DNA of 64,000 bases from an uncultured Candidatus Saccharibacteria bacterium (GCA_964434195.1 CAYSUI010000005.1:10671-74670), one strand, 5' to 3'. Numbered from the stretch's first letter, positions 14,999-60,203 are shown. Translations and numbers: made by a program. Notes: generated by a model not told the origin, from the letters alone.

Positions 14999-16321
14999 CT
15001 AATATACACTTCTCCCTATAGTCGAAACTTGTTGTTCAGCTTGCGATATTGCTTGATCCACCCTCATTCCTGTAAGCACAACATTATCTATTGCTTTTAG
15101 CATAATCGTGTCTACTCTTGCCTGATCTGGACGATAAAATTGTTTTGCTGTTAGACCCGAATATGCAAATACAGATAACTTAGGATCTTGAGTCTGTGTT
15201 TCAACTAAATCTTTTCTACTTGATGGGTATTTATAAACCGTATAATACTTAGATAATTTTTCCTTTGTTGTAATAAATTTCAAAAAATCCCAAGCAATTT
15301 CGCTATTTTTACTCTGCTTACTCACAACTTCCCCAAAATAATTTGAAAAATTAACCCTAGGATCATCTAAATTCACTTGTGGTACAGGCGCAACATCAAA
15401 ATTCAAATTAGGAGCTTTGTCGATAATAGTATCTCTAGTAAAAGAATACCCATACAAAAATGCAGCTCTTCCATTGGCAAACGCATCTATTGAATAGTCA
15501 CTCTGGGTATTCCAGGTATAATTCGCAGAATTTGGATTTGCAAAAGACGTATAGTAACTAAGACCTAAAGCTCCTGGAAAAATTTGCTTCCCATTTTTGG
15601 TTACAGGCTGTGCAAAAGTAGGTCTGGTTTTATCCGTAGACCAAGCCTGAACACCAGACTGGAGCATCAATAAATACAGAATATCTTGCGACCTATTAAC
15701 ATTTCCTGAAGTACCCATAGCTACTCCACTCACAGTAAAATAACCCCGATCGTTTTGTTTAGTAATATTTCTAACCTGCCTCCCCAACTCTTCCCATGTT
15801 TTAGGAGGACTAGCAAAACCCGCGCTACCCAGTAAGTCTTTATTGTAGTAGAGAGCAAGAGTATCTACAGAAAGAGCAGTGCCATAAACCTGATTATCTT
15901 TAGTAAAATCTTCAGTAATTACATCCAAAAAAGTATTTTTGTAATCGTTAAAGGAGAAAACTTTTTGTGGGGCAGGAGTAATTTTATCCTGATACTTTGG
16001 CAACCAAGCATTATTAATAGAAAATATATCCGGTCCGTTTCCTGATGCTAAAGCATCAATTAGATCTTCTTCGTAGTTTTCAATATTCTTTTTTGTATAT
16101 TCTATTCTAACCCTTGGATGAGCGGCCTGATATTCACCAATAAAATTCTGCATTTCTTCGCTATCTGTAAAAGGTTTCCAAAATTTCAATGTCACATAGC
16201 CATCCGTAGTAGTAGACCCATTATTTCCACTATTACAACCAGCAGCTACAAAAGAAATCAATACCAATACGGATAATATTTTTATTTTGGAAGCAATAAA
16301 CCTAAAAAAATTTTGTTTCAT
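14999..16321 (-). CDS. ABC transporter extracellular solute-binding lipoprotein (family 1, sugar type)
   Basis: Lipobox LISFVAAGC then Asn/Gly/Ser/Thr-rich linker; overall SBP_bac_1-like composition. Confidence 0.5.
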   Translation of the reverse strand: MKQNFFRFIASKIKILSVLVLISFVAAGCNSGNNGSTTTDGYVTLKFWKPFTDSEEMQNFIGEYQAAHPRVRIEYTKKNIENYEEDLIDALASGNGPDIFSINNAWLPKYQDKITPAPQKVFSFNDYKNTFLDVITEDFTKDNQVYGTALSVDTLALYYNKDLLGSAGFASPPKTWEELGRQVRNITKQNDRGYFTVSGVAMGTSGNVNRSQDILYLLMLQSGVQAWSTDKTRPTFAQPVTKNGKQIFPGALGLSYYTSFANPNSANYTWNTQSDYSIDAFANGRAAFLYGYSFTRDTIIDKAPNLNFDVAPVPQVNLDDPRVNFSNYFGEVVSKQSKNSEIAWDFLKFITTKEKLSKYYTVYKYPSSRKDLVETQTQDPKLSVFAYSGLTAKQFYRPDQARVDTIMLKAIDNVVLTGMRVDQAISQAEQQVSTIGRSVY

Positions 16322-20969: not shown

Positions 20970-21605
20970 CCCCAGCACGATTGCAGATTCTAAGTGCAGT
21001 TTCGTCGATTTTCGATGGCCTAGTCGAAGGCGTCCCCAGCCCCAGCTCGATTGCAGATTCTGTGGAGATTTTCAAAACTGTCAAAATTTAGCACGATTGC
21101 AGATTTTGTATGCAGTTTCGTCGATTTTCGATAGCCTAGTCGGAGGCGTCCTCAGTCTCAGCCCGATTGCAGATTCTGGAGGTTATTTTTGTGCAAATGC
21201 GAGTACCGAACGGAGGCGACCTACAGTCCCAGCACGATTGCAGATTTTGAAGAGATTTTCCAAATTATCGTAATTTAGCTCGATTGTATATTTTGAGTGG
21301 ATTTTTGTGACTCTTGATAGCACCTGGCTTTGCCAGTGCTAGCTCAAGTCGATTTACGAGCACCGGAACGGAGGCGTCCCCAGTCTCAGCTCGATTGCAG
21401 ATTTTGAGGAGATTTTCCAAATTATCGTAATTTAGCTCGATTGTATATTTTGAGTGGATTTTTGTGACTCTTGATAGCACCTGGCTTTGCCAGTGCTAGC
21501 TCAAGTCGATTTACGAGCACTGGAACGGAGGCGTCCGTGCTGGGACGGTGAAGTGAGGAGCGGAGCAAATCGGCAAAAAGCCGCCAAAATAGACGATCCC
21601 CTGTT
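20970..21605. repeat. Non-coding degenerate tandem repeat array (8 units starting CGATTGCAGATT/CGATTGTATATT; last two roughly 157-bp units near-identical)
   Basis: Repeat units identified by eye; the ORFs on the track here (21265-21480, 21422-21649) share identical C-termini because they lie in repeat copies. Confidence 0.75.
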
Positions 21606-41869: not shown

Positions 41870-41914
41870 AGGAAAGAGTGAGTCATGAGAGGGAAAACCA
41901 TGTTTTCCCTCTTA
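41870..41914 (+). repeat. 45-nt repeat: purine-rich SD (GGAAAGAGTGAGT) + ATG + perfect hairpin AGAGGGAAAA-ccatg-TTTTCCCTCT; copy A at the infB start
   Basis: Near-identical copy at 53317-53361. Confidence 0.7.
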
Positions 41915-43849
41915 TATTACTTTATGAATCTATCCTCCCTTTCAGAACAACTAAATTTGTCCATTCAGGAACTTCGCGATAAAGCTAACGCAAAGGGTTT
42001 TCGCATATCCCCAAGAGCAAACAAGATAGATAACCACCTCGCAAAGGAAATAATAGAAGCCCTACAAGTCAAAAAAACAGTTGAGAATAACACCCCAACA
42101 ACCCCAACCAGTATAAACCTCCCTCCATTCATTAAGGTCAGGGAATTTGCAGATTTGTTGAAAAAACCCGTGACCGAGGTCATTAAAGTGCTCATTCAGA
42201 ATGGAGTCATGGCTACTATCAACGAAGAGGTAGACTATGAAACAGCCGCTATCGTTGCTCAAGATCTAGGTTTCGAAGTCTCTACTCAGGTAAATAATGA
42301 CGAAGAAACTTATGGCTTAGGTTTCCTTCAACAAGTTATAACTTCTGAAACAGAAGGGAATTTACAACCCAGATCACCTATAGTAGCCGTAATGGGACAC
42401 GTAGATCACGGTAAAACCACCTTATTAGACGCAATCCGAAGAACCAAAGTAGCGGAAGGTGAATCAGGCGGTATTACTCAACATATTGGAGCTTATCAAG
42501 TTAAGCATAACGGTAAAAATGTTACTTTCTTAGACACACCTGGACACGAAGCTTTCTCAGAAATGAGAGCCAGAGGCGCTAATGTAACAGATATCATTAT
42601 TCTGGTTGTAGCGGCCGATGATGGCGTAAGACCACAAACAGTTGAGGTTATTAACAGAGCAAAATTCACCAATACCCCCATTATTGTTGCCATAAACAAG
42701 ATCGACAAAGAAAATGCTAACCCAATGAGGGTCAAACAGGAATTAGCAGAATATGGCATTTTAACCGAAGAATGGGGAGGCAAAACTATTGCGGTAGAAA
42801 TTTCAGCTAAACAAAACAAAGGAATAGATGATTTACTTGAAATGGTCCTTCTAACAGCAGAAATAGAAAACCTGAAGGCTAACCCAGAAGGTAAAACAGT
42901 GGGTACTGTAATTGAATCAGATACCGAACTCGGCTTAGGTGCTGTAGCAACCCTAATAGTCCAAAATGGGACCCTAAAAATTGGTGATATCTGTGTTGCT
43001 GGTAAAGCATACGGAAAAATAAAGAGTATGGAGAGCGATTCAGGTAAAAAGCTCAAAATAGCACCACCTAGCTCCCCGGTTAGAGTTTCGGGTCTTTCCA
43101 CCACCGCAGAAGCAGGAGATGTCCTACAAACAGTCGAAACTATCGAAAAAGCTAAACAAATTGCAGAAAGCGTAGCAAAAAGACAAAGAAGCCATACCTT
43201 AAAAGGTAAACACAGTCTCCAAGGAGATTTACAAAATAAGAGTCTCAATTTAATCATAAAAACCGACGTAGCTGGTAGCCTTGAAGCTATTAAACAATCT
43301 CTAGCCAAGTTAAAGAATGACGAAGTAAAAATTGAAATTCTAAATAGCGGTGTTGGAGAAGTAAATGAATCAGATGTTTTACTAGCAGAACCTTCTAAAG
43401 CCACCATTATAGCTTTTAGGGCCAAAACAAACCCCAAGGCAATAAATCTCGCTAAACAGAAAAAGGTTATAATCGATTCGTACGACGTTATTTACGAATT
43501 AATCGAGAACATTACTTCAGCAGTCGTCCAAATGTTCACCCCTGAATATGAAAAAGTAAGTTTTGGTAAAGGTGAGATATTAGCTATCTTTAGAACAGAA
43601 AAATCTGAAATGATAATTGGTGGAAAAGTAACAGAAGGCGAACTCAGAAAGAATAAGCGCATTTCCATAGAAAGAGCCGGAGTTCAAATTGGAACCGCCG
43701 AGATCCTAGAACTTCAACAAAGTAAGATCGCAACAAAAGAAGTTACTAAAGGAAATGAGTTTGGTATGAAACTAAAAACGAATATCAAACTTCAAACAGG
43801 AGATATTCTAGAAAGCTTCGAAGAAAACCTAAAACAAAAGAGTCTTTAA
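41885..43849 (+). CDS. infB: Translation initiation factor IF-2 (N-terminal 9 codons come from the repeat; real start could be further downstream)
   Basis: G-domain AVMGHVDHGKTTLLD, DTPGH, NKID; C-terminal beta-barrel domains. Confidence 0.9.
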   Translation: MRGKTMFSLLYYFMNLSSLSEQLNLSIQELRDKANAKGFRISPRANKIDNHLAKEIIEALQVKKTVENNTPTTPTSINLPPFIKVREFADLLKKPVTEVIKVLIQNGVMATINEEVDYETAAIVAQDLGFEVSTQVNNDEETYGLGFLQQVITSETEGNLQPRSPIVAVMGHVDHGKTTLLDAIRRTKVAEGESGGITQHIGAYQVKHNGKNVTFLDTPGHEAFSEMRARGANVTDIIILVVAADDGVRPQTVEVINRAKFTNTPIIVAINKIDKENANPMRVKQELAEYGILTEEWGGKTIAVEISAKQNKGIDDLLEMVLLTAEIENLKANPEGKTVGTVIESDTELGLGAVATLIVQNGTLKIGDICVAGKAYGKIKSMESDSGKKLKIAPPSSPVRVSGLSTTAEAGDVLQTVETIEKAKQIAESVAKRQRSHTLKGKHSLQGDLQNKSLNLIIKTDVAGSLEAIKQSLAKLKNDEVKIEILNSGVGEVNESDVLLAEPSKATIIAFRAKTNPKAINLAKQKKVIIDSYDVIYELIENITSAVVQMFTPEYEKVSFGKGEILAIFRTEKSEMIIGGKVTEGELRKNKRISIERAGVQIGTAEILELQQSKIATKEVTKGNEFGMKLKTNIKLQTGDILESFEENLKQKSL

Positions 43850-46026: not shown

Positions 46027-46167
46027 TTCACGAGCGTAGCAATGTGAATGCGCCAACCAAAAGTAGCTCGCTACTTTTGAAAGGGACAACAAGGTAAACG
46101 AAGTGTAGTCTTTATGAAGCGAAAGCGTAATAAAGACGTAACGCAGTGAGCCTTGGTTGGCCCGTGG
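46027..46167. ncRNA. E2: tRNA-associated structured repeat, copy 2, between tRNA-Phe and tRNA-Gly
   Basis: Aligns with E1/E4; hairpin 2 AAAAGTAGC-tcg-GCTACTTTT and hairpin 3 GTCTTTAT...ATAAAGAC show compensatory changes. Confidence 0.55.
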
Positions 46168-46244
46168 TGGTGCCTCGGCTCAGAATCGAACTGAGTACGC
46201 AAGCCTCTTCAGGGCTTCGCTCTACCAATGAGCTACCGAGGCGC
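46168..46244 (-). tRNA. tRNA-Phe (anticodon GAA), CCA encoded
   Basis: Anticodon stem AAGCC/GGCTT, loop CTGAAGA. Confidence 0.8.
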
Positions 46245-46358: not shown

Positions 46359-46385
46359 CTATATATATTATAACTGAGACTATGA

Positions 46386-46522
46386 TTCACGAGCGCAGCA
46401 ATGTGAATTCGCTACAAAATGTAACTCGTTACATTTTAAAGGGGCAACTTGGGGAACGTAGTGAAAGGTTTATGGAGCGATAGCGTAATAAACCTGCAAC
46501 GAAGAGAGCCAAGATTGACCCG
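46386..46522. ncRNA. E4: tRNA-associated structured repeat, copy 4, between tRNA-Leu(GAG) and tRNA-Val
   Basis: Aligns with E1 over the full length. Confidence 0.55.
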
Positions 46523-46607
46523 TGGTGCCCGAGGAGGGACTCGAACCCTCAAGCCTTACGGCATACGCACCTCAAGCGTACGCGTATACCAATTCCGCCA
46601 CCCGGGC
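46523..46607 (-). tRNA. tRNA-Leu (anticodon GAG), type II, CCA encoded
   Basis: Anticodon stem TACGC/GCGTA, loop TTGAGGT; long variable arm. Confidence 0.8.
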
Positions 46608-47607: not shown

Positions 47608-47785
47608 AATGAAAAACCTCGGGGCAAGCCCACGAGGTATCGAATCTCATGTGTCATTCCCGAGAAGTCGGGAATCCATGCGCTTGAATCTCATGGATCC
47701 CCGCATGCGCGAGGATGACAACACAGCGGGGCAAGCCCCGGGGTATTAACCCTAACAGAGATAATAAAAAACCGACATAACAATT

Positions 47786-48109: not shown

Positions 48110-48394
48110 TTAATCTCCTCCCGAAAAATTTATTGTGAAAACCAAATAAAATAGATAACTAACGAATATTAATAAAATAATAACCACATGTAAAGTGGAC
48201 AACTAATTTATAATTTAAGAGTCCATTCCCATGGAAATGGGAATCCACACCCAGATTGATTTTTACGCCCTAATAAAGTAAAATTGAGTAACGAATTCCC
48301 CACTGACGTTGCACTTCTGCATTTAATAGCAGCAAAGCTGCGAGACGGGGGAAGCTTCGATCCGGGTTTCCCGGATGAAGGGGTGCTCTTGAAG

Positions 48395-48446
48395 GAATCA
48401 GGCTTCGCCTGTCCCTGCTCAAGTCGGCTACGCAAGCCCCTACCTA
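48395..48446. repeat. X1: REP-like hairpin module (CAGGCTTCGCCTG ... GCTCAAGTCGGCTACGCAAGCCCC) immediately 5' of tRNA-Cys; paralog of the insert at 56714-56792
   Basis: Aligns with CGAATCTGGCTCTGCCAGTTCGAGAGGCGACGCAAGCCCCC at the gyrA 3' scar. Confidence 0.45.
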
Positions 48447-48521
48447 GGTGCGTTGGCGAAGTGGTAACGCTGCGGTCTGCAAAACCGCCATGCGTGGGTT
48501 CGAATCCCACACGCACCTCCA
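48447..48521 (+). tRNA. tRNA-Cys (anticodon GCA), CCA encoded
   Basis: Acceptor GGTGCGT/ACGCACC, anticodon loop CTGCAAA, T-arm GTGGGTTCGAATCCCAC. Confidence 0.8.
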
Positions 48522-48537
48522 TGTGGGAGGTTATTCA

Positions 48538-48705
48538 GGATTCCCAAATTACTTGCTTACGTATGAGTTTATTTGAAAAACCCCGAAGAGGGGTTTTTCA
48601 AAAAACAAAGCAAGAAGCAGTTTGGGAAGAGGAGAACTTTATGGAAACTGCAGTTACTAGTTCTGCAACGAACTAGTAACGGAGGTTGGAATAAAGTATG
48701 ACGAG
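48538..48705 (+). ncRNA. Y1: roughly 165-nt structured element (long GAAGA-loop hairpin; SD GGGAAGAGGAGAA + 11-codon mini-ORF 48641-48676) between tRNA-Cys and its truncated copy
   Basis: Second copy at 56844-57009 with compensatory stem changes (CCCC/GGGG vs GCGC/GCGC; ACTAGTTC/GAACTAGT vs ATTAGTTT/AAACTAAT). Confidence 0.55.
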
Positions 48706-48771
48706 GCGAAGTGGTAACGCTGCGGTCTGCAAAACCGCCATTCGCGGGCTCGAATCCCGCTCGCGCCTCCA
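48706..48771 (+). pseudogene. 5'-truncated tRNA-Cys copy (D-arm to CCA; acceptor 5' strand absent) with compensatory T-stem/acceptor changes relative to the intact gene
   Basis: GCGAAGTGGTAACGCTGCGGTCTGCAAAACCGCCAT identical; T-stem GCGGG/CCCGC vs GTGGG/CCCAC; 3' acceptor TCGCGCC has no 5' partner upstream. Confidence 0.7.
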
Positions 48772-48859
48772 AAAAACAACAATCCTATTTGTTGTTTTTT
48801 AATTGGTATACGATAATAAATCTCTTGTGATTACGTTTACCTATTGATATAATTGTAAT

Positions 48860-49345
48860 ATGCCCAACAAAAGGAGATGGACAAATAAAGAATTGATTAA
48901 GGCTGTGAAAACATCTTATAGTCTCAGGCAAGTATTAATACTACTCGGACTACGGCCAACAGGTGGTAATTACGATCAACTAGCAAAATACATAAAAGAA
49001 CTAAATCTAAATATCACACATTTTAAGGGTAAGGGCTGGAATAAGGGTTTAACATATTTTCATCCTCGTCAGGAATTAAAAGATCTTCTTGTCAAAGGTG
49101 GAACTTCCCAAAGTTACAAATTAAAACTACGACTATTCCGAGAAAATCTTAAACCTCAACAATGCGAAGAGTGTGGGTGGGCAAAAAAATCACCTGATGG
49201 ACGCCTACCACTAGAACTTGAACACATAAATGGAGACAGGCACGATAATAGAATAGAAAACTTAAAAATTCTGTGTCCAAACTGCCATAGTTTAACTATT
49301 ACATATAGGGCTAGAAATAAAATCAAAAAATCTGCTACAATATGA
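48860..49345 (+). CDS. HNH-family endonuclease (stand-alone, 161 aa)
   Basis: CEECGW...LELEHINGDRHDNRIENLKILCPNCHS: canonical HNH with flanking Cys pairs. Confidence 0.8.
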   Translation: MPNKRRWTNKELIKAVKTSYSLRQVLILLGLRPTGGNYDQLAKYIKELNLNITHFKGKGWNKGLTYFHPRQELKDLLVKGGTSQSYKLKLRLFRENLKPQQCEECGWAKKSPDGRLPLELEHINGDRHDNRIENLKILCPNCHSLTITYRARNKIKKSATI

Positions 49346-49350
49346 ACCAT

Positions 49351-49436
49351 GCCCGAGTGGCGGAACTGGTATACGCACAACACTTAAAATGTTGCGTCCT
49401 ATGGAATTGAGGGTTCGAGTCCCTCCTCGGGCACCA
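49351..49436 (+). tRNA. tRNA-Leu (anticodon UAA), type II, CCA encoded; starts 6 nt after the HNH stop
   Basis: Acceptor GCCCGAG, anticodon stem CAACA/TGTTG, loop CTTAAAA, long variable arm. Confidence 0.8.
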
Positions 49437-49596
49437 CAAAAAACACGTTCATATATGTGAACGTGTTTTTTATTAATATTAACTAAAAATAAAGGGAATC
49501 AAACCTTCGCGCTAGCGAAATCTTTAGAAAGCTTAAGACATGCTCCGCTGGCTTAAGCGTTCGGCGCAAGCCTGCGAAGTCGCCGATATATAGACA

Positions 49597-49658
49597 TCCC
49601 TCCTCGGGCACCACAAAAAAACACGTTCTATATATGAACGTGTTTTTAAGTAATATAT
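49597..49658 (+). repeat. Direct repeat of the last 18 nt of tRNA-Leu(UAA) plus its terminator hairpin, 160 nt downstream of the original (att-like duplication flanking a 113-nt structured insert at 49481-49593)
   Basis: TCCCTCCTCGGGCACCAC + AAACACGTTC-tatatat-GAACGTGTTT duplicates 49419-49468. Confidence 0.7.
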
Positions 49659-53316: not shown

Positions 53317-53361
53317 CGGAAAGGGTGAGTAATGAGAGGGAAAACCATGTTTTCCCTCTCA
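53317..53361 (+). repeat. Copy B of the SD + ATG + hairpin repeat (GGAAAGGGTGAGTAATGAGAGGGAAAACCATGTTTTCCCTCT) just upstream of the 53363 ORF
   Basis: Near-identical to 41870-41914. Confidence 0.7.
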
Positions 53362-53362
53362 T

Positions 53363-53989
53363 ATGCATTTACAATTTTTCGGACTTTCAAGTTTCAAATT
53401 CACAACAAAAGAAGCAGTGGTAGTTACCGACCCCTTCGATAAATCGTCTGGTCTTACTCCACCAAGAGGTGGAGCAGATATAGTAATTCTCGCCGAAAAA
53501 GAAAACCCACTCTATTCAGAAATAAAAGGTATTACCGGTGAACCTTTCCATGCTTTCGACCCAGGAGAATACGACGTAAAAGGAGTAACAATAACCGGCA
53601 TCCCTTTAAAACAAGATAAGGGCTATGTAACGGCATTCCTAATAGAAAGTGAAGATATCAGAATTCTTAATTTAACTCACATTAAAGAATTCTCTATGAA
53701 ACAAGACGAACTAGAAGACTTGGGAGATATAGACATTCTCATCTTGCCCGTTGGTGGCCACTCTGTAATGGACGCTAGTACAGCAGCCAAAGTAGTAAAC
53801 CAAGTAGAACCCGCTCTTATTATTCCCAGCCACTACAGTATGGACGGACTAAAAACAGAAACCGATAAATTAGAAAAATTTGTTAAAGAAATGGGTGGTA
53901 AATCAGAAGAGACAGATAAAATAATCGTTAAAAAGAAAGACCTAAACCCAGAAATTTCCAAAGTTATGGTTCTCACGCCTATGAGATAA
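53363..53989 (+). CDS. MBL-fold-like hydrolase homolog lacking the HxHxDH metal motif
   Basis: UPF0173-like length and C-terminal ILILPVGGH...IIPSHY pattern; N-terminal His cluster absent. Confidence 0.3.
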   Translation: MHLQFFGLSSFKFTTKEAVVVTDPFDKSSGLTPPRGGADIVILAEKENPLYSEIKGITGEPFHAFDPGEYDVKGVTITGIPLKQDKGYVTAFLIESEDIRILNLTHIKEFSMKQDELEDLGDIDILILPVGGHSVMDASTAAKVVNQVEPALIIPSHYSMDGLKTETDKLEKFVKEMGGKSEETDKIIVKKKDLNPEISKVMVLTPMR

Positions 53990-53998
53990 TTTTGATCC

Positions 53999-54229
53999 AT
54001 GTATATGTCTCTAAAAGATATTCAAAACAAAAGTCCCGAAGAAAAAAAGAGATTAATAGCTATAATCTTATTCATAACATCTCTATTTCTTGTAGGTCTC
54101 TGGATAGCAACGTCTAAACTCAGACATAACCTAAACAAAGACGAAACTATAATTGAAACCTTCAGAACCGGAATCCAGGATACCAAAACCAATTTTAAAA
54201 ACCCTAACGCCCCAGATCCTTCTAAATAA
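53999..54229 (+). CDS. Small membrane protein, hypothetical
   Basis: ORF with one TM helix. Confidence 0.25.
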   Translation: MYMSLKDIQNKSPEEKKRLIAIILFITSLFLVGLWIATSKLRHNLNKDETIIETFRTGIQDTKTNFKNPNAPDPSK

Positions 54230-54238
54230 CTATCAAAA

Positions 54239-56713
54239 ATGACCAACAAAGATAAAGAAATCGCAAAAACCGATGAATTCAACATCGGCACAGTCAAACC
54301 AAGAGACATTCAAACAGAAATGCAAGAATCTTACTTGGATTACGCAATGAGTGTTATCGTTAACCGCGCCCTCCCAGACATTAGAGACGGCCTTAAGCCA
54401 GTACACAGACGCATATTCTATGCTATGCACGAACTAGGACTACGCCATAACGCTAAATTCCGTAAATCTGCAGCTGTTGTTGGTGAAGTACTTGGTAAAT
54501 ACCACCCACACGGCGACCAAGCGGTTTACCAGTCCATGGTTCACATGGCCCAAGACTTCGCCATGCGTTACCCGCTTATAGACGGTCAAGGAAATTTCGG
54601 TTCTATGGATGGCGATGAAGCCGCAGCCATGCGTTATACAGAAGCCAGAATGGATTCTCTTGCAGAGGAACTCCTAACAGACCTAGACAAAGAAACCGTT
54701 GAATGGCGAGATAACTACGATGCCACAAGAAAAGAACCTTCTGTGCTCCCAGCAAAGCTTCCAAACCTTTTACTAAATGGAACTCTTGGCATCGCTGTTG
54801 GTATGGCCACAGACATACCCCCACACAACATAAGCGAAGTTATAGACGGCATCACAATGCTTATAGAAGACCCAGAGGTAACCGTTGAAGATCTCACTAC
54901 AGTAGTTAAAGGTCCAGATTTTCCTACCGGAGGAACAATCTACGATATCGCAAGTATAAGAAACGCATACGCTACAGGAAAAGGAAGCATAGTAATGCGC
55001 GGTAAAACCGAAATTGTAGAAACCAAAAGTGGCATGTTCCAAATCATCATCAACGAAATTCCGTATCGTGTGAACAAAGCCACAATGCTCGAAAGAATTG
55101 CCGACCTAGTTCGTGACAAAAAAATTGAAGGCATAAAAGATGTACGTGATGAATCCGACAAAGAGGGCGTTAGGGTCGTAATCGACTTAAAAAAAGAAAG
55201 TTTACCAAACAAAATACTCAATCAGTTATTCTCTTACACCCAGCTCCAAGAAACCTTTCACATGAACATGCTGGCGCTTATAGACGGACTAGAACCAAGG
55301 GTTCTAAACCTCAAAAGCATTCTGGAAGAATACATAAAACACAGACAAGTTGTTGTAAGAAGAAGAACGGAGTTCGATCTCAAAAAAGCAAAAGAACGAG
55401 CACACATTTTAGAGGGTTTAACTATTGCGCTAGACCACATAGACGAAGTCATAAACACCATAAGAAAGAGCGCAACAAAAGAAGAAGCCCACGCTAACTT
55501 AATGAAAAAGTTTAAGTTAAGCACTCTTCAAGCTCAAGCTATCCTAGATATGAGACTGCAAACACTCGCAGGTCTCGAAAGAAAGAAAATAGACGATGAG
55601 TTAAAAGAGAAAAGAAAACTTATCGCAGAACTGGAAGATATACTTAGCAAACCAAAGCGTATTCTCGCTATTATAAAAACCGAAATTGCTGAACTCAAAG
55701 AAAAATATGGCGACGAGAGACGTACTCAAATAGTTAAGTCCCCTGTTGGCACATTCTCTGTAGAAGACCTTATACCAGAAAACGAAAGCCTAATATCTTT
55801 CACTAAGAGTGGGTACATAAAACGTCTAGCTCCAGAAACCTACAAAGCCCAAGTTAGAGGAGGCAAGGGTGTCATAGGTACCGGACTAAAAGACGAAGAC
55901 GTCGTTGAGAAGTTAATTTCCGCCAATACTCACGACGAAATTCTCTTTTTCACCAATAAAGGGAGGGTATTTCTTACTAAAGTTTATGAACTCCCAGAAG
56001 GAAGCAGAACTAGTAAAGGACAAGCTCTGGTTAACTTCCTAGAAATGGGTACAGGCGAAACCGCTACAGCAATTCTGACCCTAAGCAAAAACGACTCAGT
56101 AAAATTCCTCGTAATGGCCACTAAGGGCGGGGTTATAAAAAAGGTTGCAAGAGAAGAATTCGCTAAAGTTAGAAGATCAGGTCTTATCGCCATAAACCTA
56201 AAAGACGGAGATGAACTAAAATGGGTAGAAGGCAGTAGCGGAACTGACGAGATCATTCTTGTATCAGAAAATGGAATGGCAATTCGTTTCAACGAAAAAG
56301 ACGTAAGAGCAATGGGCAGAGTATCCACCGGAGTAGGTGGCATGAGACTTAAAAAAGGTGATTGCCTAATATCCATGGATGTAATCGCTAAAACTGCAGA
56401 CCAAAAAAATCTTGAGGTTTTGGTAATAACAGAAAAAGGTCTAGGTAAAAAGAGCCCTATCTCAGATTATAAAACCCAAAAAAGAGCCGGTGGTGGTGTA
56501 AAGACCCTAAAAATTACTCCAAAGACAGGTAAAGCCGTTGCAATGAATATCGTTAACAACAAAGATGAAAACGACCTTGTAATTATCTCCAAGCAAGGCC
56601 AAACCCTAAGAACACCCCTAAACTCCATCTCCACCCTAGGCCGAGCCACCCAAGGCGTAAGAGTAATGAGATTAGACGATGGAGACTCAGTGGCTAGCGT
56701 AACGGTCATTTAA
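54239..56713 (+). CDS. gyrA: DNA gyrase subunit A
   Basis: Active-site region [10 protein letters not shown] with catalytic Tyr; QRDR-like HPHGD; C-terminal beta-pinwheel repeats. Confidence 0.92.
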
Positions 56714-56843
56714 TAGCGGCAAGGCCGCGAGAAGGGAGGCTCGAATCTGGCTCTGCCAGTTCGAGAGGCGACGCAAGCCCCCTTAGTAGCAAGTCATGAG
56801 ATTAGACGATGGCGATAGCGTAGCAAGCGTTACTGTCATTTAG
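56714..56843. repeat. Insertion scar after the gyrA stop: 79-nt REP-like hairpin module X2 (56714-56792) followed by a diverged 51-nt duplicate of the gyrA 3' end (56793-56843)
   Basis: gtcatgagattagacgatggcgatagcgtagcaagcgttactgtcatttag vs gyrA terminal gtaatgagattagacgatggagactcagtggctagcgtaacggtcatttaa (about 80% identity). Confidence 0.7.
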
Positions 56844-57009
56844 GGATCCTAAATTACTTGCTTACATATTAGTTTTAGAAAAAAGCGCGAAGAGCGCTTT
56901 TTTCTAAAACATGGAAAGAAGCAATTTGGGAAGAGGAGAACTTTATGGAGACTGCAGTAATTAGTTTTATATCAAACTAATTAGGGAAGTCGAAATAAAG
57001 TTGGACGAG
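56844..57009 (+). ncRNA. Y2: second copy of the 165-nt structured element with SD + 11-codon mini-ORF (56945-56980, METAVISFISN)
   Basis: Aligns with Y1 with compensatory stem changes. Confidence 0.55.
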
Positions 57010-57066
57010 CAAGTGTGACTGTTATCTAAAACCCTAACCATTATTAAATATAAAAATAAGCGACTC

Positions 57067-57435
57067 CTAAGCGGGGTCGCTTTCGTTTTCTACCAGTTCA
57101 AGAATTCTCCTCTCAATTGTTATAAGATTAACGTTTAAAGGGAAACAAAATTGAGGAATTTCGGGATATTTCATTTGAGATTCACGCCAACTCTTAAGTG
57201 ATATAGTAACACCAAAAGATTTCTCAAGCTTATCGGTCCAAATCGTAAAATCTTTACCCTCACCATCAGCAACCGAATGGGGCCTGTGTCTCTTGTATTT
57301 AGTTATATACCCTTTCACTTTAAGTTCTTCTAATAATTTCTCGACCTTAGACTCCAAATCTCTACCGAATTCGGAATATCTTTTAGATTTTCTTTCACGA
57401 TAAGCCTGAAAATCTCGTTTATTCTTCCAACCCAT
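57067..57435 (-). CDS. Hypothetical basic protein
   Basis: ORF only. Confidence 0.3.
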   Translation of the reverse strand: MGWKNKRDFQAYRERKSKRYSEFGRDLESKVEKLLEELKVKGYITKYKRHRPHSVADGEGKDFTIWTDKLEKSFGVTISLKSWRESQMKYPEIPQFCFPLNVNLITIERRILELVENESDPA

Positions 57436-57563
57436 ATTCCCTCCTTTACCCCCCCTATTTTAAATATAATAACCCCACTTATCCACTCTTTGCAAAAACA
57501 TTTAGCCTTTGCTATCTTTGCTTTTGGTACAATCCATATATTGTCCAAAAAAGGAGACGACAA

Positions 57564-58466
57564 ATGATAAAGAGGGAAAAACAAAGCACATTAAATTGGA
57601 CTGAAGGTCATAACCTTTTGCTCGAATGCGGGATTAACCCCGATAGTCTAGATCCCGATTTTCTATTGCGTTATCGCATCCAAACAGAGGAATCAGATAG
57701 CATATATGACGCAAAAATAACTATCGAGCTAGCCAAAGAATTCAATACGTATTTAGAAAACTGTGGGTTTGCAATCCTGGACGATACAGAACTCAGAGAA
57801 ATTTTTGTAGGCTTGCTACTTTCGGATATCGGTAAAACTGGACCAGAATTTCCAGAAGGCATGCAAGAAACTCAAAAAATTCAACAGATACGCGATTACT
57901 TAAAACTATATTCAATTAAAAATATACCGAATTACGAGTCAATTTCTCTAGAAGATTGTATCAGAAAATATTTCTCCGAAGACAAAGAAATGGTATCCAG
58001 ATTTAAGGCATACGGCGAAGACCCATCTCAGTCCATGAGAAATTTCACTAACCAACACGCACACCGAAGCTACAAAATAGCTTGCAATAGCGGAATTCCC
58101 GAGGACACAATCCCCGCAATTGCTCTTCATCACATATTTGAAGACCAAAATCCTGATAATCTAGTTGCTGAAGACGGCCACTTTACTCGCGACTGTGGTT
58201 GCAACACAGAATTTCACCGTCCTGAACTTCTAGTGGTTATACTAGACAAACTAAATGCCGTCCAAACAAGACTTACTCCCGGACAAACCGCTCCCAGTTG
58301 GCTGGAAGCCACACTTTTAGTAGAAGTTCAAATGGAAGAACGAATCGAAAGACTAACTCACCCCGAACTCAAAAAACTTCTAAAATCCATGTGGTATGAG
58401 GTCACACAAACACTTCATAGAATCGCGGCCTTCAAATCTCCCAGAGCCTACAGTACGAAAGCTTAA
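57564..58466 (+). CDS. Hypothetical protein, possibly divergent HD-domain (LLSDIGK in place of LLHDIGK)
   Basis: HDIG-like context with several conserved His (HAHRS, IALHHI); SD aaaaaggagacgacaaATG. Confidence 0.3.
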   Translation: MIKREKQSTLNWTEGHNLLLECGINPDSLDPDFLLRYRIQTEESDSIYDAKITIELAKEFNTYLENCGFAILDDTELREIFVGLLLSDIGKTGPEFPEGMQETQKIQQIRDYLKLYSIKNIPNYESISLEDCIRKYFSEDKEMVSRFKAYGEDPSQSMRNFTNQHAHRSYKIACNSGIPEDTIPAIALHHIFEDQNPDNLVAEDGHFTRDCGCNTEFHRPELLVVILDKLNAVQTRLTPGQTAPSWLEATLLVEVQMEERIERLTHPELKKLLKSMWYEVTQTLHRIAAFKSPRAYSTKA

Positions 58467-58570
58467 AAAACCGAGCAACTTAGTTGCTCATTTTATTTTC
58501 CTTCTTGACTTTTATACAAAAATTCAGCAAAATGCACGATTCGACTTAAAATAATTTCTTTGGAGGGAAC

Positions 58571-59902
58571 ATGACAGGAACAAATCTGAACTCGCTTCTC
58601 AGCGAGTTTAAAAGACTAGCAGGAAACAACTTCCAACTTTTTACAAACCGATATTTCCAAGCGAGGTCGGGAGGAGAATTCGTTCTCCCTTACGAAGCCA
58701 TTCTTGAACACTTTGGTCTGAACCCCAAACTAGTTTCTGGCCAAACCCACATAATCATATGCGATGCTTTTCGTGACTTAGACGACGAGAAGACTATCAT
58801 TCTCATGAAAGCACTAATTGAATGCGAAGCCGAGCTCGCTGTCGTGGTCACAAATCTAAACAGCGCGCTCGACCGGGCGTGCGGAGTTAAAGGATTACTA
58901 AGACTACTGGATCTGGGTTTTGTACCAGTAGGAGTAGGTACTGACGGCTCCAACGAAGCGGTACCTTTCCATTTCGAAAGGACAGTACCTTTTGCAGTGC
59001 CCGCATACCAAGTAAACCCAGACGGTCAAAGCCTAATAATTAACACACTCACTTCCGCTAAGCCAAAAAGTGTAAGTGTGTTACTAATCTCCTCACTTCG
59101 TGATATGGACATCATATTAGAAGAAAACAACTCCCTCTGCCGCGATCGGATAAACCGAATTACCTTAATGGCGGGGGTAAAAATCGCAAATGGTAAACCA
59201 AAGTTGCTAAATGGCTTACTTCAAGCAGACATAAAGACTAACGGCGTAGGTGGTGCATCAAACTGCAATTTTGATACAGCTGCTAGCACAAGACTGTATC
59301 GGAACGCTCAAAAGCTCGAAATTCCTACTACAACTCTCACAAGAGTAACCGCGGGTGAAGTTAAGTTACCGTTTAGTATCTTCGATATTTGGGCTACCAC
59401 AGGCCACCCAGCCGCCTCACGCCTCAAAGACGGCCAATCCCATAGTTTCAATAACTTACGCCTGGCTTGCCTGGAAGGTAAAGGTGGTCCACACAGAGTA
59501 GCTCTCGAACTCGCGCTGGACCGAGACATAAACTGGTTCATCTATAAGGCGTTTTTCAGAAACGCTCCAAAAGAAATACAGGAGCAAATTCTGAACCTGC
59601 CATTACATGAATCTGTCTGGCCCATTGCCGCCGACTACGGCGAGCTTATGCCCTACGACCCACTGGCACTACTCGCAAGCATAGAAGGCAACTCGCTGTT
59701 TAACTATCACTCCACAGTGGTAGGCGGAGCTGTTCACAAGGTGGTAGGTATAGACGCCCAAAACACCGGCGCCCTAGACCCACTTTCCTTAAGAATGCTT
59801 CTGTTCATAGCCACAACAGAAGTACTCATAAGAACATCCAACCACGCCAAACGCGAATTCCTCGCCATAAAACGCGAACGCCTAGAAGCAAAAACTATCT
59901 AA
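58571..59902 (+). CDS. Hypothetical protein, weakly inosine-uridine nucleoside hydrolase-like N-terminus (IICDAFRDLDDE)
   Basis: Asp cluster resembling IUNH DxDxxxDD; locally higher GC. Confidence 0.25.
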   Translation: MTGTNLNSLLSEFKRLAGNNFQLFTNRYFQARSGGEFVLPYEAILEHFGLNPKLVSGQTHIIICDAFRDLDDEKTIILMKALIECEAELAVVVTNLNSALDRACGVKGLLRLLDLGFVPVGVGTDGSNEAVPFHFERTVPFAVPAYQVNPDGQSLIINTLTSAKPKSVSVLLISSLRDMDIILEENNSLCRDRINRITLMAGVKIANGKPKLLNGLLQADIKTNGVGGASNCNFDTAASTRLYRNAQKLEIPTTTLTRVTAGEVKLPFSIFDIWATTGHPAASRLKDGQSHSFNNLRLACLEGKGGPHRVALELALDRDINWFIYKAFFRNAPKEIQEQILNLPLHESVWPIAADYGELMPYDPLALLASIEGNSLFNYHSTVVGGAVHKVVGIDAQNTGALDPLSLRMLLFIATTEVLIRTSNHAKREFLAIKRERLEAKTI

Positions 59903-59988
59903 TCCCAAGACCCAAAACGGTCTTTTTTATTTCCCATACTTAATTTCCCTACATAATAAACAAAAGACACCACTAAAGGTGCCTAAAA

Positions 59989-60126
59989 TTCACGAGCGAA
60001 GCAATGTGAGTGCTAAAATGGGGTCCCCGACAGCTCGCTTTTGGGGAAGAGGGACACGAGCCAAAACATCGCGCAAGGTTTTCTGCATCGAAAACCTGGA
60101 GCAAAGTTTGGGCTCGATGGCCCGAG
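59989..60126. ncRNA. E5: most divergent copy of the tRNA-associated structured repeat, abutting tRNA-Ile(UAU)
   Basis: Shares 5' TTCACGAGCGAAGCAATGTGAG and the 3' junction ...GGCCCGAG-TGGTGGGCGC; middle region diverged. Confidence 0.45.
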
Positions 60127-60203
60127 TGGTGGGCGCACTAGGACTCGAACCTAGGACCCTCGAGGTATAAGCTCGATGCTCTAACCAACTGAGCTATGCG
60201 CCC
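60127..60203 (-). tRNA. tRNA-Ile (anticodon UAU as encoded; AUA-decoding), CCA encoded
   Basis: Acceptor GGGCGCA, anticodon stem TCGAG/CTCGA, loop CTTATAC, T-arm CTAGGTTCGAGTCCTAG. Confidence 0.65.

Follow-up and report, generated by a model that had tools for sequence, protein, structure and literature searches.

A covarying, strand-specific structured element behind tRNA-Cys and gyrA in a Candidatus Saccharibacteria lineage

Among described systems, those closest to the element reported here are the bidirectional intrinsic (Rho-independent) terminators, in which a GC-cored hairpin, preceded by an A run and followed by a T run, stands behind a gene or tRNA, and the spacers of tRNA and rRNA operons together with external transcribed spacers, whose long stems are cut by RNase III or RNase P and may leave 3'ETS-type by-products. 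Other comparisons are provided by the REP/BIME, REPIN and IS200/IS605-derived palindromic elements, families of extragenic hairpins, biased to one strand, that recur at the 3' ends of genes, and by leader-peptide attenuators and type I toxin mRNAs, in which a strong hairpin overlaps a short ORF with its Shine-Dalgarno sequence (SD). Type I toxin-antitoxin systems typically combine a hydrophobic toxin, usually of 19-60 residues, with an overlapping antisense RNA. The boxB hairpin of the lambda nut site carries a GNRA-like pentaloop (GAAGA or GAAAA), and free-standing HNH homing endonucleases are found in tRNA gene regions (e.g., the F-TflIV type of phage T5). In a 64-kb stretch of DNA from a Candidatus Saccharibacteria (TM7) genome, hereafter the window, we analyzed two copies of an element, Y, that most resembles a structured tRNA-operon spacer capped by a terminator-like hairpin and lies outside any described RNA family. 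Rfam 15 contains no Y family: only tRNAs passed the gathering threshold in the window, and a search at E values up to 10 around both copies returned only tRNAs and noise.

An initial annotation had placed the two copies at 48538-48705 (Y1) and 56844-57009 (Y2), and both were found there with the strings quoted for them, except that Y2 ends in CGAAATAAAGT and not in GGAATAAAGT. The copies are paralogs that can be aligned end to end at 78-79% identity (MAFFT, BLAST), and their similarity begins 8-9 nt further upstream, at 48530 and 56835 (GTTATTCAG versus GTCATTTAG). With these starts Y1 (48530-48705, plus strand), directly 3' of tRNA-Cys, scored 193 bits with model R1, and Y2 (56835-57009, plus strand), in the gyrA 3' region, scored 201 bits. 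Hairpin domain 1 of Y1 (48541-48628) has the basal stems TCCCAAAT/ATTTGGGA and TTGCTT/AAGCAA and is topped by an apical hairpin of 13 bp (48572-48602), terminator-like in its GC clamp between A and T runs, with an invariant GAAGA loop. The first bases of a purine-rich run, GGGAAGAGGAGAAC (48624-48637), close domain 1, and the remainder forms an unpaired linker with an SD-like AGGAG. Hairpin domain 2 (48636-48697), a rod of 22 bp, is interrupted by two 3x3 internal loops rich in purines (GGA/GGA and GCA/GGA) and includes an 11-codon ORF. The corresponding parts of Y2, likewise on the plus strand, are domain 1 at 56847-56931, the apical hairpin at 56872-56910, domain 2 at 56939-57002 and the mini-ORF at 56945-56980. 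As quoted, GGGAAGAGGAGAACTTTATGGA is invariant between the copies. The tail of Y (...GGACGAG) is sharply bounded, with unrelated sequence adjoining it in every copy, and the element has no terminal inverted repeats.

Relatives for comparison were found through GyrA homologs: L029, L030 and L031 belong to the same lineage (∼90% DNA identity), and GyrA identity is 86% for L032 and 81% for L033. The description of Y as a covarying structured element of ∼165-170 nt, present behind tRNA-Cys and again behind gyrA, was borne out by fold statistics and by paired changes. Folding z-scores against shuffled sequences were -8.2 and -9.3 for RNA and -9.9 for DNA, with 0 of 200 shuffles folding as well. The GAAGA-loop hairpins were present (TGAAAAACCCC/GGGGTTTTTCA at 48572-48602 and TAGAAAAAAGCGC/GCGCTTTTTTCTA at 56872-56910), as were the second hairpins of both copies, the outermost pair of hairpin 2 in Y2 being a G.G mismatch in the window and G-C in L029. 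Covariation was assessed in five sequences representing three deep lineages (Y1 of the window, Y1 of L029, and Y2) that are 74-80% identical to one another. RNAalifold gave 52 pairs for these sequences, and in 14 of the 52 both sides had changed; in the named structure 98.1% of cells were paired, and the observed values were not reached by any shuffle. When the partners were slid by 1-3 columns as a control, just 0-1 compensated pairs were left. The double changes cluster in the tip of domain 1 and along the whole of domain 2. In the basal stems of domain 1 there is either no variation or a change from G-C to G.U, and no double change, the one exception being a third Y-like copy in L029 (described below), in which P1b is fully replaced. 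Unpaired parts that do not vary are the GAAGA loop, the AGGAG of the linker, and the GGA shared by the two 3x3 internal loops of domain 2, and the GAAGA loop is kept in Y1, its L029 ortholog, Y2 and the third L029 copy while the stems around it covary. Because G.U pairs (5 positions, 10 cells) occur on the plus strand only, with no A.C cells at all, the fold belongs to the plus strand, which is co-transcribed with tRNA-Cys and gyrA.

The same paired changes bear on the 11-codon ORFs, METAVTSSATN* (48641-48676) and METAVISFISN* (56945-56980), which had been proposed to make Y a leader-peptide attenuator or the structured 5' region of a type I toxin or small-protein gene. The stop codon does lie inside hairpin 2, as claimed. 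The L029 ortholog of Y1 reads AACTTGACGGAG, versus AACTTTATGGAA in the window, and its start codon is lost (ATG to ACG); this T>C change is compensated by A>G on the opposite stem strand, and a preceding T>G is compensated likewise, with the opposite strand changing from ATAAAGT to GACAAGT. The SD-like run of this ortholog is GGGACAAGGAG, and the sole in-frame start is a TTG 3 nt past it. Codon differences are non-synonymous in 6 of 7 cases between Y1 and its L029 ortholog and in 4 of 6 between Y1 and Y2, with the changes paired across the stem, so that synonymous changes do not outnumber non-synonymous ones as they should under purifying selection on the peptide. The compensated loss of the ATG and the mostly non-synonymous changes thus point to selection on pairing and not on the peptide. 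Frame and stop position do persist across the three lineages (stops TAG, TGA and TAA), but the stem by itself demands this, as it does the lack of indels. The base of domain 2 buries the start codon, the 11-residue METAVTSSATN is short, polar and not hydrophobic, and no regulated gene lies 3' of Y2, where the sequence continues with the 20-nt remnant of gyrA, then a terminator and a gene of convergent orientation. Whereas attenuators and type I toxin mRNAs share with Y a short ORF with an SD and an overlapping strong hairpin, Y has no conserved start codon, sign of peptide selection, regulated gene, hydrophobic peptide or antisense partner. From these comparisons Y appears to be a non-coding RNA and not a small-protein gene.

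The tip of domain 1 has 13-17 bp with a GC core of 3-4 bp and 5-6 U, and its U run pairs with the upstream A run. It is like a bidirectional intrinsic terminator in its GC core, in having an A run before and a T run after, and in lying on the transcribed strand behind a gene or tRNA. However, the hairpin is held within a stem of ∼85 nt whose 3' strand continues beyond the U run, its loop is invariant, and a second conserved rod follows. A terminator consensus scan did not call the tip because the U run is inside the stem, and other terminators of the window give partial matches to the terminator-like part of the Y model. The L029 tip also departs from terminators: its GC core has just 3 bp, along with an A.A mismatch, and a tRNA-Leu without a promoter of its own follows, so efficient termination cannot occur at this tip. 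A scan of both loci found no promoter-like site inside Y on either strand, and the idea that a promoter within Y serves tRNA-Leu was rejected for lack of a -35/-10 match. The short GC stem with a GAAGA pentaloop is also like lambda boxB, but the closing pair in Y is C-G and not U-A, no boxA-like sequence lies at the right distance, and Y is downstream of genes rather than in a leader; the resemblance may be merely that of a stable loop.

At the first locus, the intact tRNA-Cys(gca) (48447-48521, plus strand) lies between Y1 and X1 (48320-48446, plus strand), a GC-rich structured 5' leader of the tRNA that contains an extra 45-nt hairpin module at ∼48386-48426. A promoter upstream of X1 and tRNA-Cys (48256-48284) has the same hexamers in L029 and L033. 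On the other side, the tail of Y1 adjoins an insertion (48705-49350, plus strand) consisting of a 5'-truncated tRNA-Cys copy (48705-48771, from position 9 to the end, with compensated differences in the T-stem), a terminator, a promoter (48825-48853) and an HNH endonuclease ORF (48860-49345) that stops 5 nt before tRNA-Leu(taa) (49351-49436). The arrangement in L029 is simpler: tRNA-Cys (4954-5028), Y (5047-5217) and tRNA-Leu(taa) (5216-5302) are co-oriented, and there is no truncated tRNA. Y in L029 therefore has the placement of a structured tRNA-operon spacer, between co-oriented tRNAs on the transcribed strand of one upstream promoter, and shares with such spacers its long rods. It differs from them in having a second copy in the 3' UTR of the gyrA mRNA and in a sequence limited to one lineage. 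L029 and L033 both represent endonuclease-free alleles of this slot, and the Cys-Leu spacer of L033 (139 nt) is unrelated to Y (6.8 bits) and forms two consecutive hairpins (z = -3.35).

The HNH protein has more than 1600 homologs, mostly in Patescibacteria, and one with 66% identity from a distant CPR lineage (L039-L042) occupies the same tRNA-Cys(gca)/tRNA-Leu(taa) slot, its stop codon overlapping the start of tRNA-Leu. Because Y1 of L029 lacks the truncated tRNA-Cys and an HNH homolog occupies this very slot in a distant CPR lineage, the truncated tRNA is assigned to the left end of a homing-endonuclease cassette, joined to the Y1 tail illegitimately, and not to a scar of Y. The proposal that both copies are embedded in integration scars is thus partly wrong: Y2 does lie among duplicated gyrA 3' ends, but the truncated tRNA beside Y1 is part of the neighboring cassette, and Y1 of L029 has no flanking duplication of any kind. 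The likeness to free-standing HNH endonucleases of tRNA gene regions concerns the neighbor of Y1, whereas Y itself fills the slot in endonuclease-free alleles. The window's own GyrA and HNH proteins had no exact database record, and homologs of the neighboring 107-aa gene led to one short contig that ends inside X1. Permuted group I intron halves around tRNA-Cys were considered and rejected, since the last base of X before the tRNA is not G.

Further structured sequence accompanies other tRNAs of the window. After tRNA-Leu(taa), at 49437-49656, come a terminator, a 117-nt insert with an inverted piece resembling a tRNA T-arm, and then the last 17 nt of the tRNA with a terminator; L029 (5303-5700) has two such tRNA-Leu(taa) 3' units in tandem. 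Trailers of ∼140 nt with three hairpins directly follow minus-strand tRNAs at 8749-8891, 46027-46169, 46385-46527 and 60018-60127 (Leu-tag, Phe, Leu-gag and Ile); their stems covary, G.U pairs fall on the tRNA-sense strand, and a small hairpin, TTCACGAGCGCAGCAATGTGA, recurs five times. The presence of these covarying trailers behind other tRNAs is a further point of likeness between Y and tRNA-operon spacers.

At the second locus, the order behind gyrA is end copy 1, X2, copy 2, Y2, copy 3, all on the plus strand. Copy 1 (56663-56713) is the functional end; X2 (56714-56792), a paralog of X1, begins right after the gyrA stop codon; copy 2 (56793-56843) accounts for the 51 nt between X2 and Y2 and encodes the same 16 residues plus stop as copy 1; and copy 3 (57010-57029; ASVTVI*), of 20 nt, directly follows the Y2 tail and is itself followed by the ancestral gyrA terminator (57058-57082). 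Copies 1 and 2 differ in nine codons, all synonymously and including a TCA/AGC serine pair, through changes at 11 bases that involve all four base types, and copy 3 differs from copy 2 at five third positions. This synonymous-only divergence implies that the ends are alleles that diverged under selection and were imported, not duplicated in place. A diversity-generating retroelement was rejected as the source, the differences not being adenine-specific and no RT domain being found in the ORFs scanned, and a selected hairpin in copy 2 was likewise rejected (z = -1.6, not significant). Since in L032 and L033 no such sequence separates the gyrA stop from the terminator or gene that follows, Y2 and X2 together are a lineage-specific insertion behind gyrA.

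X1 and X2 have covarying stems and no Rfam match, and both loci share the layout of X, a middle piece and Y, the middle piece being tRNA-Cys in one case and the 51-nt gyrA end in the other. Homology at the left edges reaches 7-9 nt into the last codons of gyrA (CATTTAA before X1 and GTTATTCAG before Y1), which may reflect microhomology-mediated junctions or copying from the gyrA locus. Long-range pairing between X and Y was rejected, as none was conserved in whole-locus folds.

The distribution of Y is narrow. Run over the 64-kb window with filters off, model R1 found Y1 and Y2 only, within 8.5 kb, and a domain-1 model agreed. A weak match at 60018-60127 (23.8 bits), of uncertain membership, was left out of the count of copies because it has the layout of the ∼140-nt tRNA-trailer family and its functional strand is the opposite one. 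L029 contains orthologs of Y1 and Y2 plus the third Y-like copy (15788-15957, equivalent to L001 4911-5080), which lies next to tRNA-Ile; it has the GAAGA loop and the same P1a, with the inner stem P1b fully replaced by compensated changes, its domain 2 is different, and the window has other sequence at that site. Counting this copy at the corresponding position of ∼60.0 kb, together with those at 48.5 kb and 56.8 kb, the copies span less than 12 kb. An exact scan of genome contigs with a 20-mer of the linker found the same gyrA locus in MAG CAYLIB010000001 (L001) and one chance coding match, and the 20-mer occurs once in the whole representative genome. Metagenome contigs gave 26 loci with an 18-mer, all of them chance matches as judged by nhmmer and by eye; four patterns run against viral contigs gave nothing or chance matches of 11.6 bits; and phage and plasmid BLAST searches found no Y. 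As copies were seen in this lineage alone and the viral, metagenome, phage, plasmid and Rfam searches came back empty, the Y family is real but seems limited to a single Saccharibacteria lineage. The window and L029 share a mosaic identity that ranges from 69 to 100% per 100 nt, and between window 54003-59933 and L029 9766-15687, tracts of 97-100% alternate with tracts of 69-90%; such a pattern suggests frequent homologous exchange with diverged lineages.

The reading we favor, at a probability of about one half, is that Y is a non-coding, strand-specific, structured 3' trailer RNA of ∼170 nt belonging to the unit upstream of it, with a terminator-capped rod followed by a second rod, and that it has spread locally by recombination. 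The home of Y would be the tRNA-Cys/tRNA-Leu(taa) spacer in the endonuclease-free form of the locus, from which one copy, along with the tRNA-Cys leader X, would have been copied behind gyrA, the junctions leaving the recoded gyrA-end duplicates. The joins would have been homologous on one side and illegitimate on the other. Local spread by recombination is suggested by copies less than 12 kb apart, by the empty gyrA end in L032 and L033, by the mosaic identity, and by the synonymous-only divergence of the gyrA ends. The comparisons above show the fold, its strand, the non-coding nature of Y, its position and its distribution, as well as the separate origin of the truncated tRNA-Cys, whereas the recombinational spread is inferred, and for function the anatomy suggests a role in termination or processing. 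Domain 1, a long stem whose GC-clamped tip between A and U runs is built like a bidirectional intrinsic terminator with a GAAGA pentaloop cap, would act in cis on the transcript by ending or pausing transcription at the tip, and the rods would supply double-stranded RNA for 3'-end protection or for RNase III-type processing; a gene for RNase III is present in the window (4949-5707). The predicted effect is that tRNA-Cys is separated from tRNA-Leu and the gyrA mRNA is closed. Y would have to be removed from the Cys-Leu precursor in L029, and Y2 would now be the first terminator-like hairpin behind gyrA. The trailer reading leaves unexplained the invariant GAAGA loop, the GGA-rich internal loops, the linker, and the shared order of X and Y around unrelated middle pieces.

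An unlikely alternative, although one with several observations in its favor, is that Y (and X) is miniature non-autonomous mobile DNA whose hairpins a trans-acting transposase or recombinase would recognize on a single DNA strand, as happens with IS200/IS605-derived palindromic elements, REP/REPIN or attC, the structure being kept for mobility and not for the host. The G.T bias to one strand fits recognition of single-stranded DNA as well as it fits RNA, and the DNA fold has a z-score of -9.9. L032 and L033 lack Y2 and X2 behind gyrA, the third Y-like copy of L029 is replaced in the window, and the ends of Y are sharp, with the ...GGACGAG tail against unrelated sequence. Moreover, other small structured insertions occur in the same genome, one with a clean 7-bp target duplication (47620-47766), and the 45-nt hairpin module nested in X1 is common to a repeat array at 21.3 kb. 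However, mobile DNA would hardly be expected to leave just two or three copies within 12 kb, none further in the 64-kb window with filters off, and a 20-mer found once in the representative genome. The supposed target duplications (20, 51 and 67 nt) show synonymous divergence only, unlike the products of a staggered cut, and Y1 of L029 has none. Terminal inverted repeats are lacking, none of the 30 window ORFs scanned contained a recombinase, transposase, integrase, Y1/HUH or RT domain, and the viral, phage and plasmid collections searched yielded no Y. Y shares with the REP/BIME, REPIN and IS200/IS605-derived elements a strand bias, a place at gene 3' ends and differences in presence and absence, but its copies are two or three, its hairpins are three to four times longer, no Y1 transposase accompanies it, and its flanking repeats are either long and diverged (20 and 51 nt at gyrA) or, at Y1 of L029, absent.

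We consider it doubtful that Y is released from its precursor as a stable trans-acting sRNA that, e.g., binds or sequesters a protein through its GGA-rich loops, linker and GNRA-like GAAGA pentaloop. Such a function would account for invariant loops and an invariant linker amid covarying stems, and in the L029 arrangement maturation of the two neighboring tRNAs, by RNase P and at the 3' end, would be expected to free a discrete Y. The GAAGA loop may nevertheless be a mere stable cap, and domain 2, which holds the GGA-rich loops, differs in the third copy. An sRNA of this kind also sits uneasily with an element that is limited to one narrow lineage and matches no Rfam family, even at E values up to 10.

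Another quite improbable possibility is that X and Y are the two ends of a tiny enzyme-less cassette, X-[target end copy]-Y, that inserts at the 3' ends of essential genes, relying on homology or microhomology with its internal fragment. Such a cassette would supply a recoded replacement end plus a terminator and would spread in a new, guide-like manner in highly recombinogenic CPR genomes. The notion rests on the same order of X and Y at both loci, on the left-edge homology into gyrA codons, and on the nested hairpin modules found elsewhere.

Still less probable is that Y and the adjacent gene-end copy are an attP-sized remnant of integrase-mediated elements that target gene 3' ends. A displaced target 3' end does follow each insert (gyrA copies 2 and 3, tRNA-Cys and tRNA-Leu(taa)), and copy plus Y amounts to ∼240-250 bp, which is near the size of a lambda-type attP. 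But the displaced tRNA-Cys copy of the window is explained by the HNH cassette and is lacking beside Y1 of L029, no integrase was found nearby among the ORFs scanned, and Y is absent from 2.9 million viral contigs searched with three patterns. In addition, a single arm (Y) beside two unrelated cores (tRNA-Cys and gyrA) does not suit core-specific integrases. An attC site was rejected because the R'/R'' motifs did not fit. Translation of the 11-codon ORF as a leader peptide, small protein or type I toxin is scarcely credible, despite an AGGAG 6 nt before the ATG in Y1 and Y2 and the frame kept in three lineages, given the stem-compensated ACG in L029, the non-synonymous codon changes and the buried start described above. 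Overall, Y lacks what defines attenuators, type I toxins, MITE/REP-type repeats, integrase scars and diversity-generating retroelements.

Y thus joins the broad class of structured extragenic elements as a new member, restricted to one lineage. If the trailer reading is true, it would be a clean lineage-specific structured tRNA trailer or 3' UTR RNA in an ultra-small episymbiotic bacterium, with compensatory evolution that is unusually clear for just three lineages, and it would be useful for annotating non-coding RNA in Saccharibacteria while introducing no new principle. Its surroundings outweigh it in interest. The region combines the insertion of a homing endonuclease with partly duplicated tRNA and gyrA ends that derive from diverged alleles and with small structured modules gained and lost between close relatives, a patchwork that could lend itself to a case study of recombination as a force reshaping the intergenic DNA of CPR genomes.

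Several smaller features of the window may be recorded here. The insertion at 47620-47766 is a GC-rich structured sequence of 147 nt flanked by a 7-bp duplication (AAAAACC); L029 and L034 lack it at the corresponding site, so that it is a clean polymorphism for the presence or absence of a small element. The segment at 20970-21540 is a non-coding array of ∼157-nt tandem repeats, and one module of it, at 21311-21351 and 21468-21508, is homologous to the extra 45-nt hairpin of X1 (48386-48426), with a covarying stem. Finally, a 54-nt repeat with 89% identity between its copies, at 41871-41924 and 53318-53371, contains the hairpin GAGAGGGAAAACCATGTTTTCCCTCT and is found where infB and a metallo-beta-lactamase-fold gene begin.
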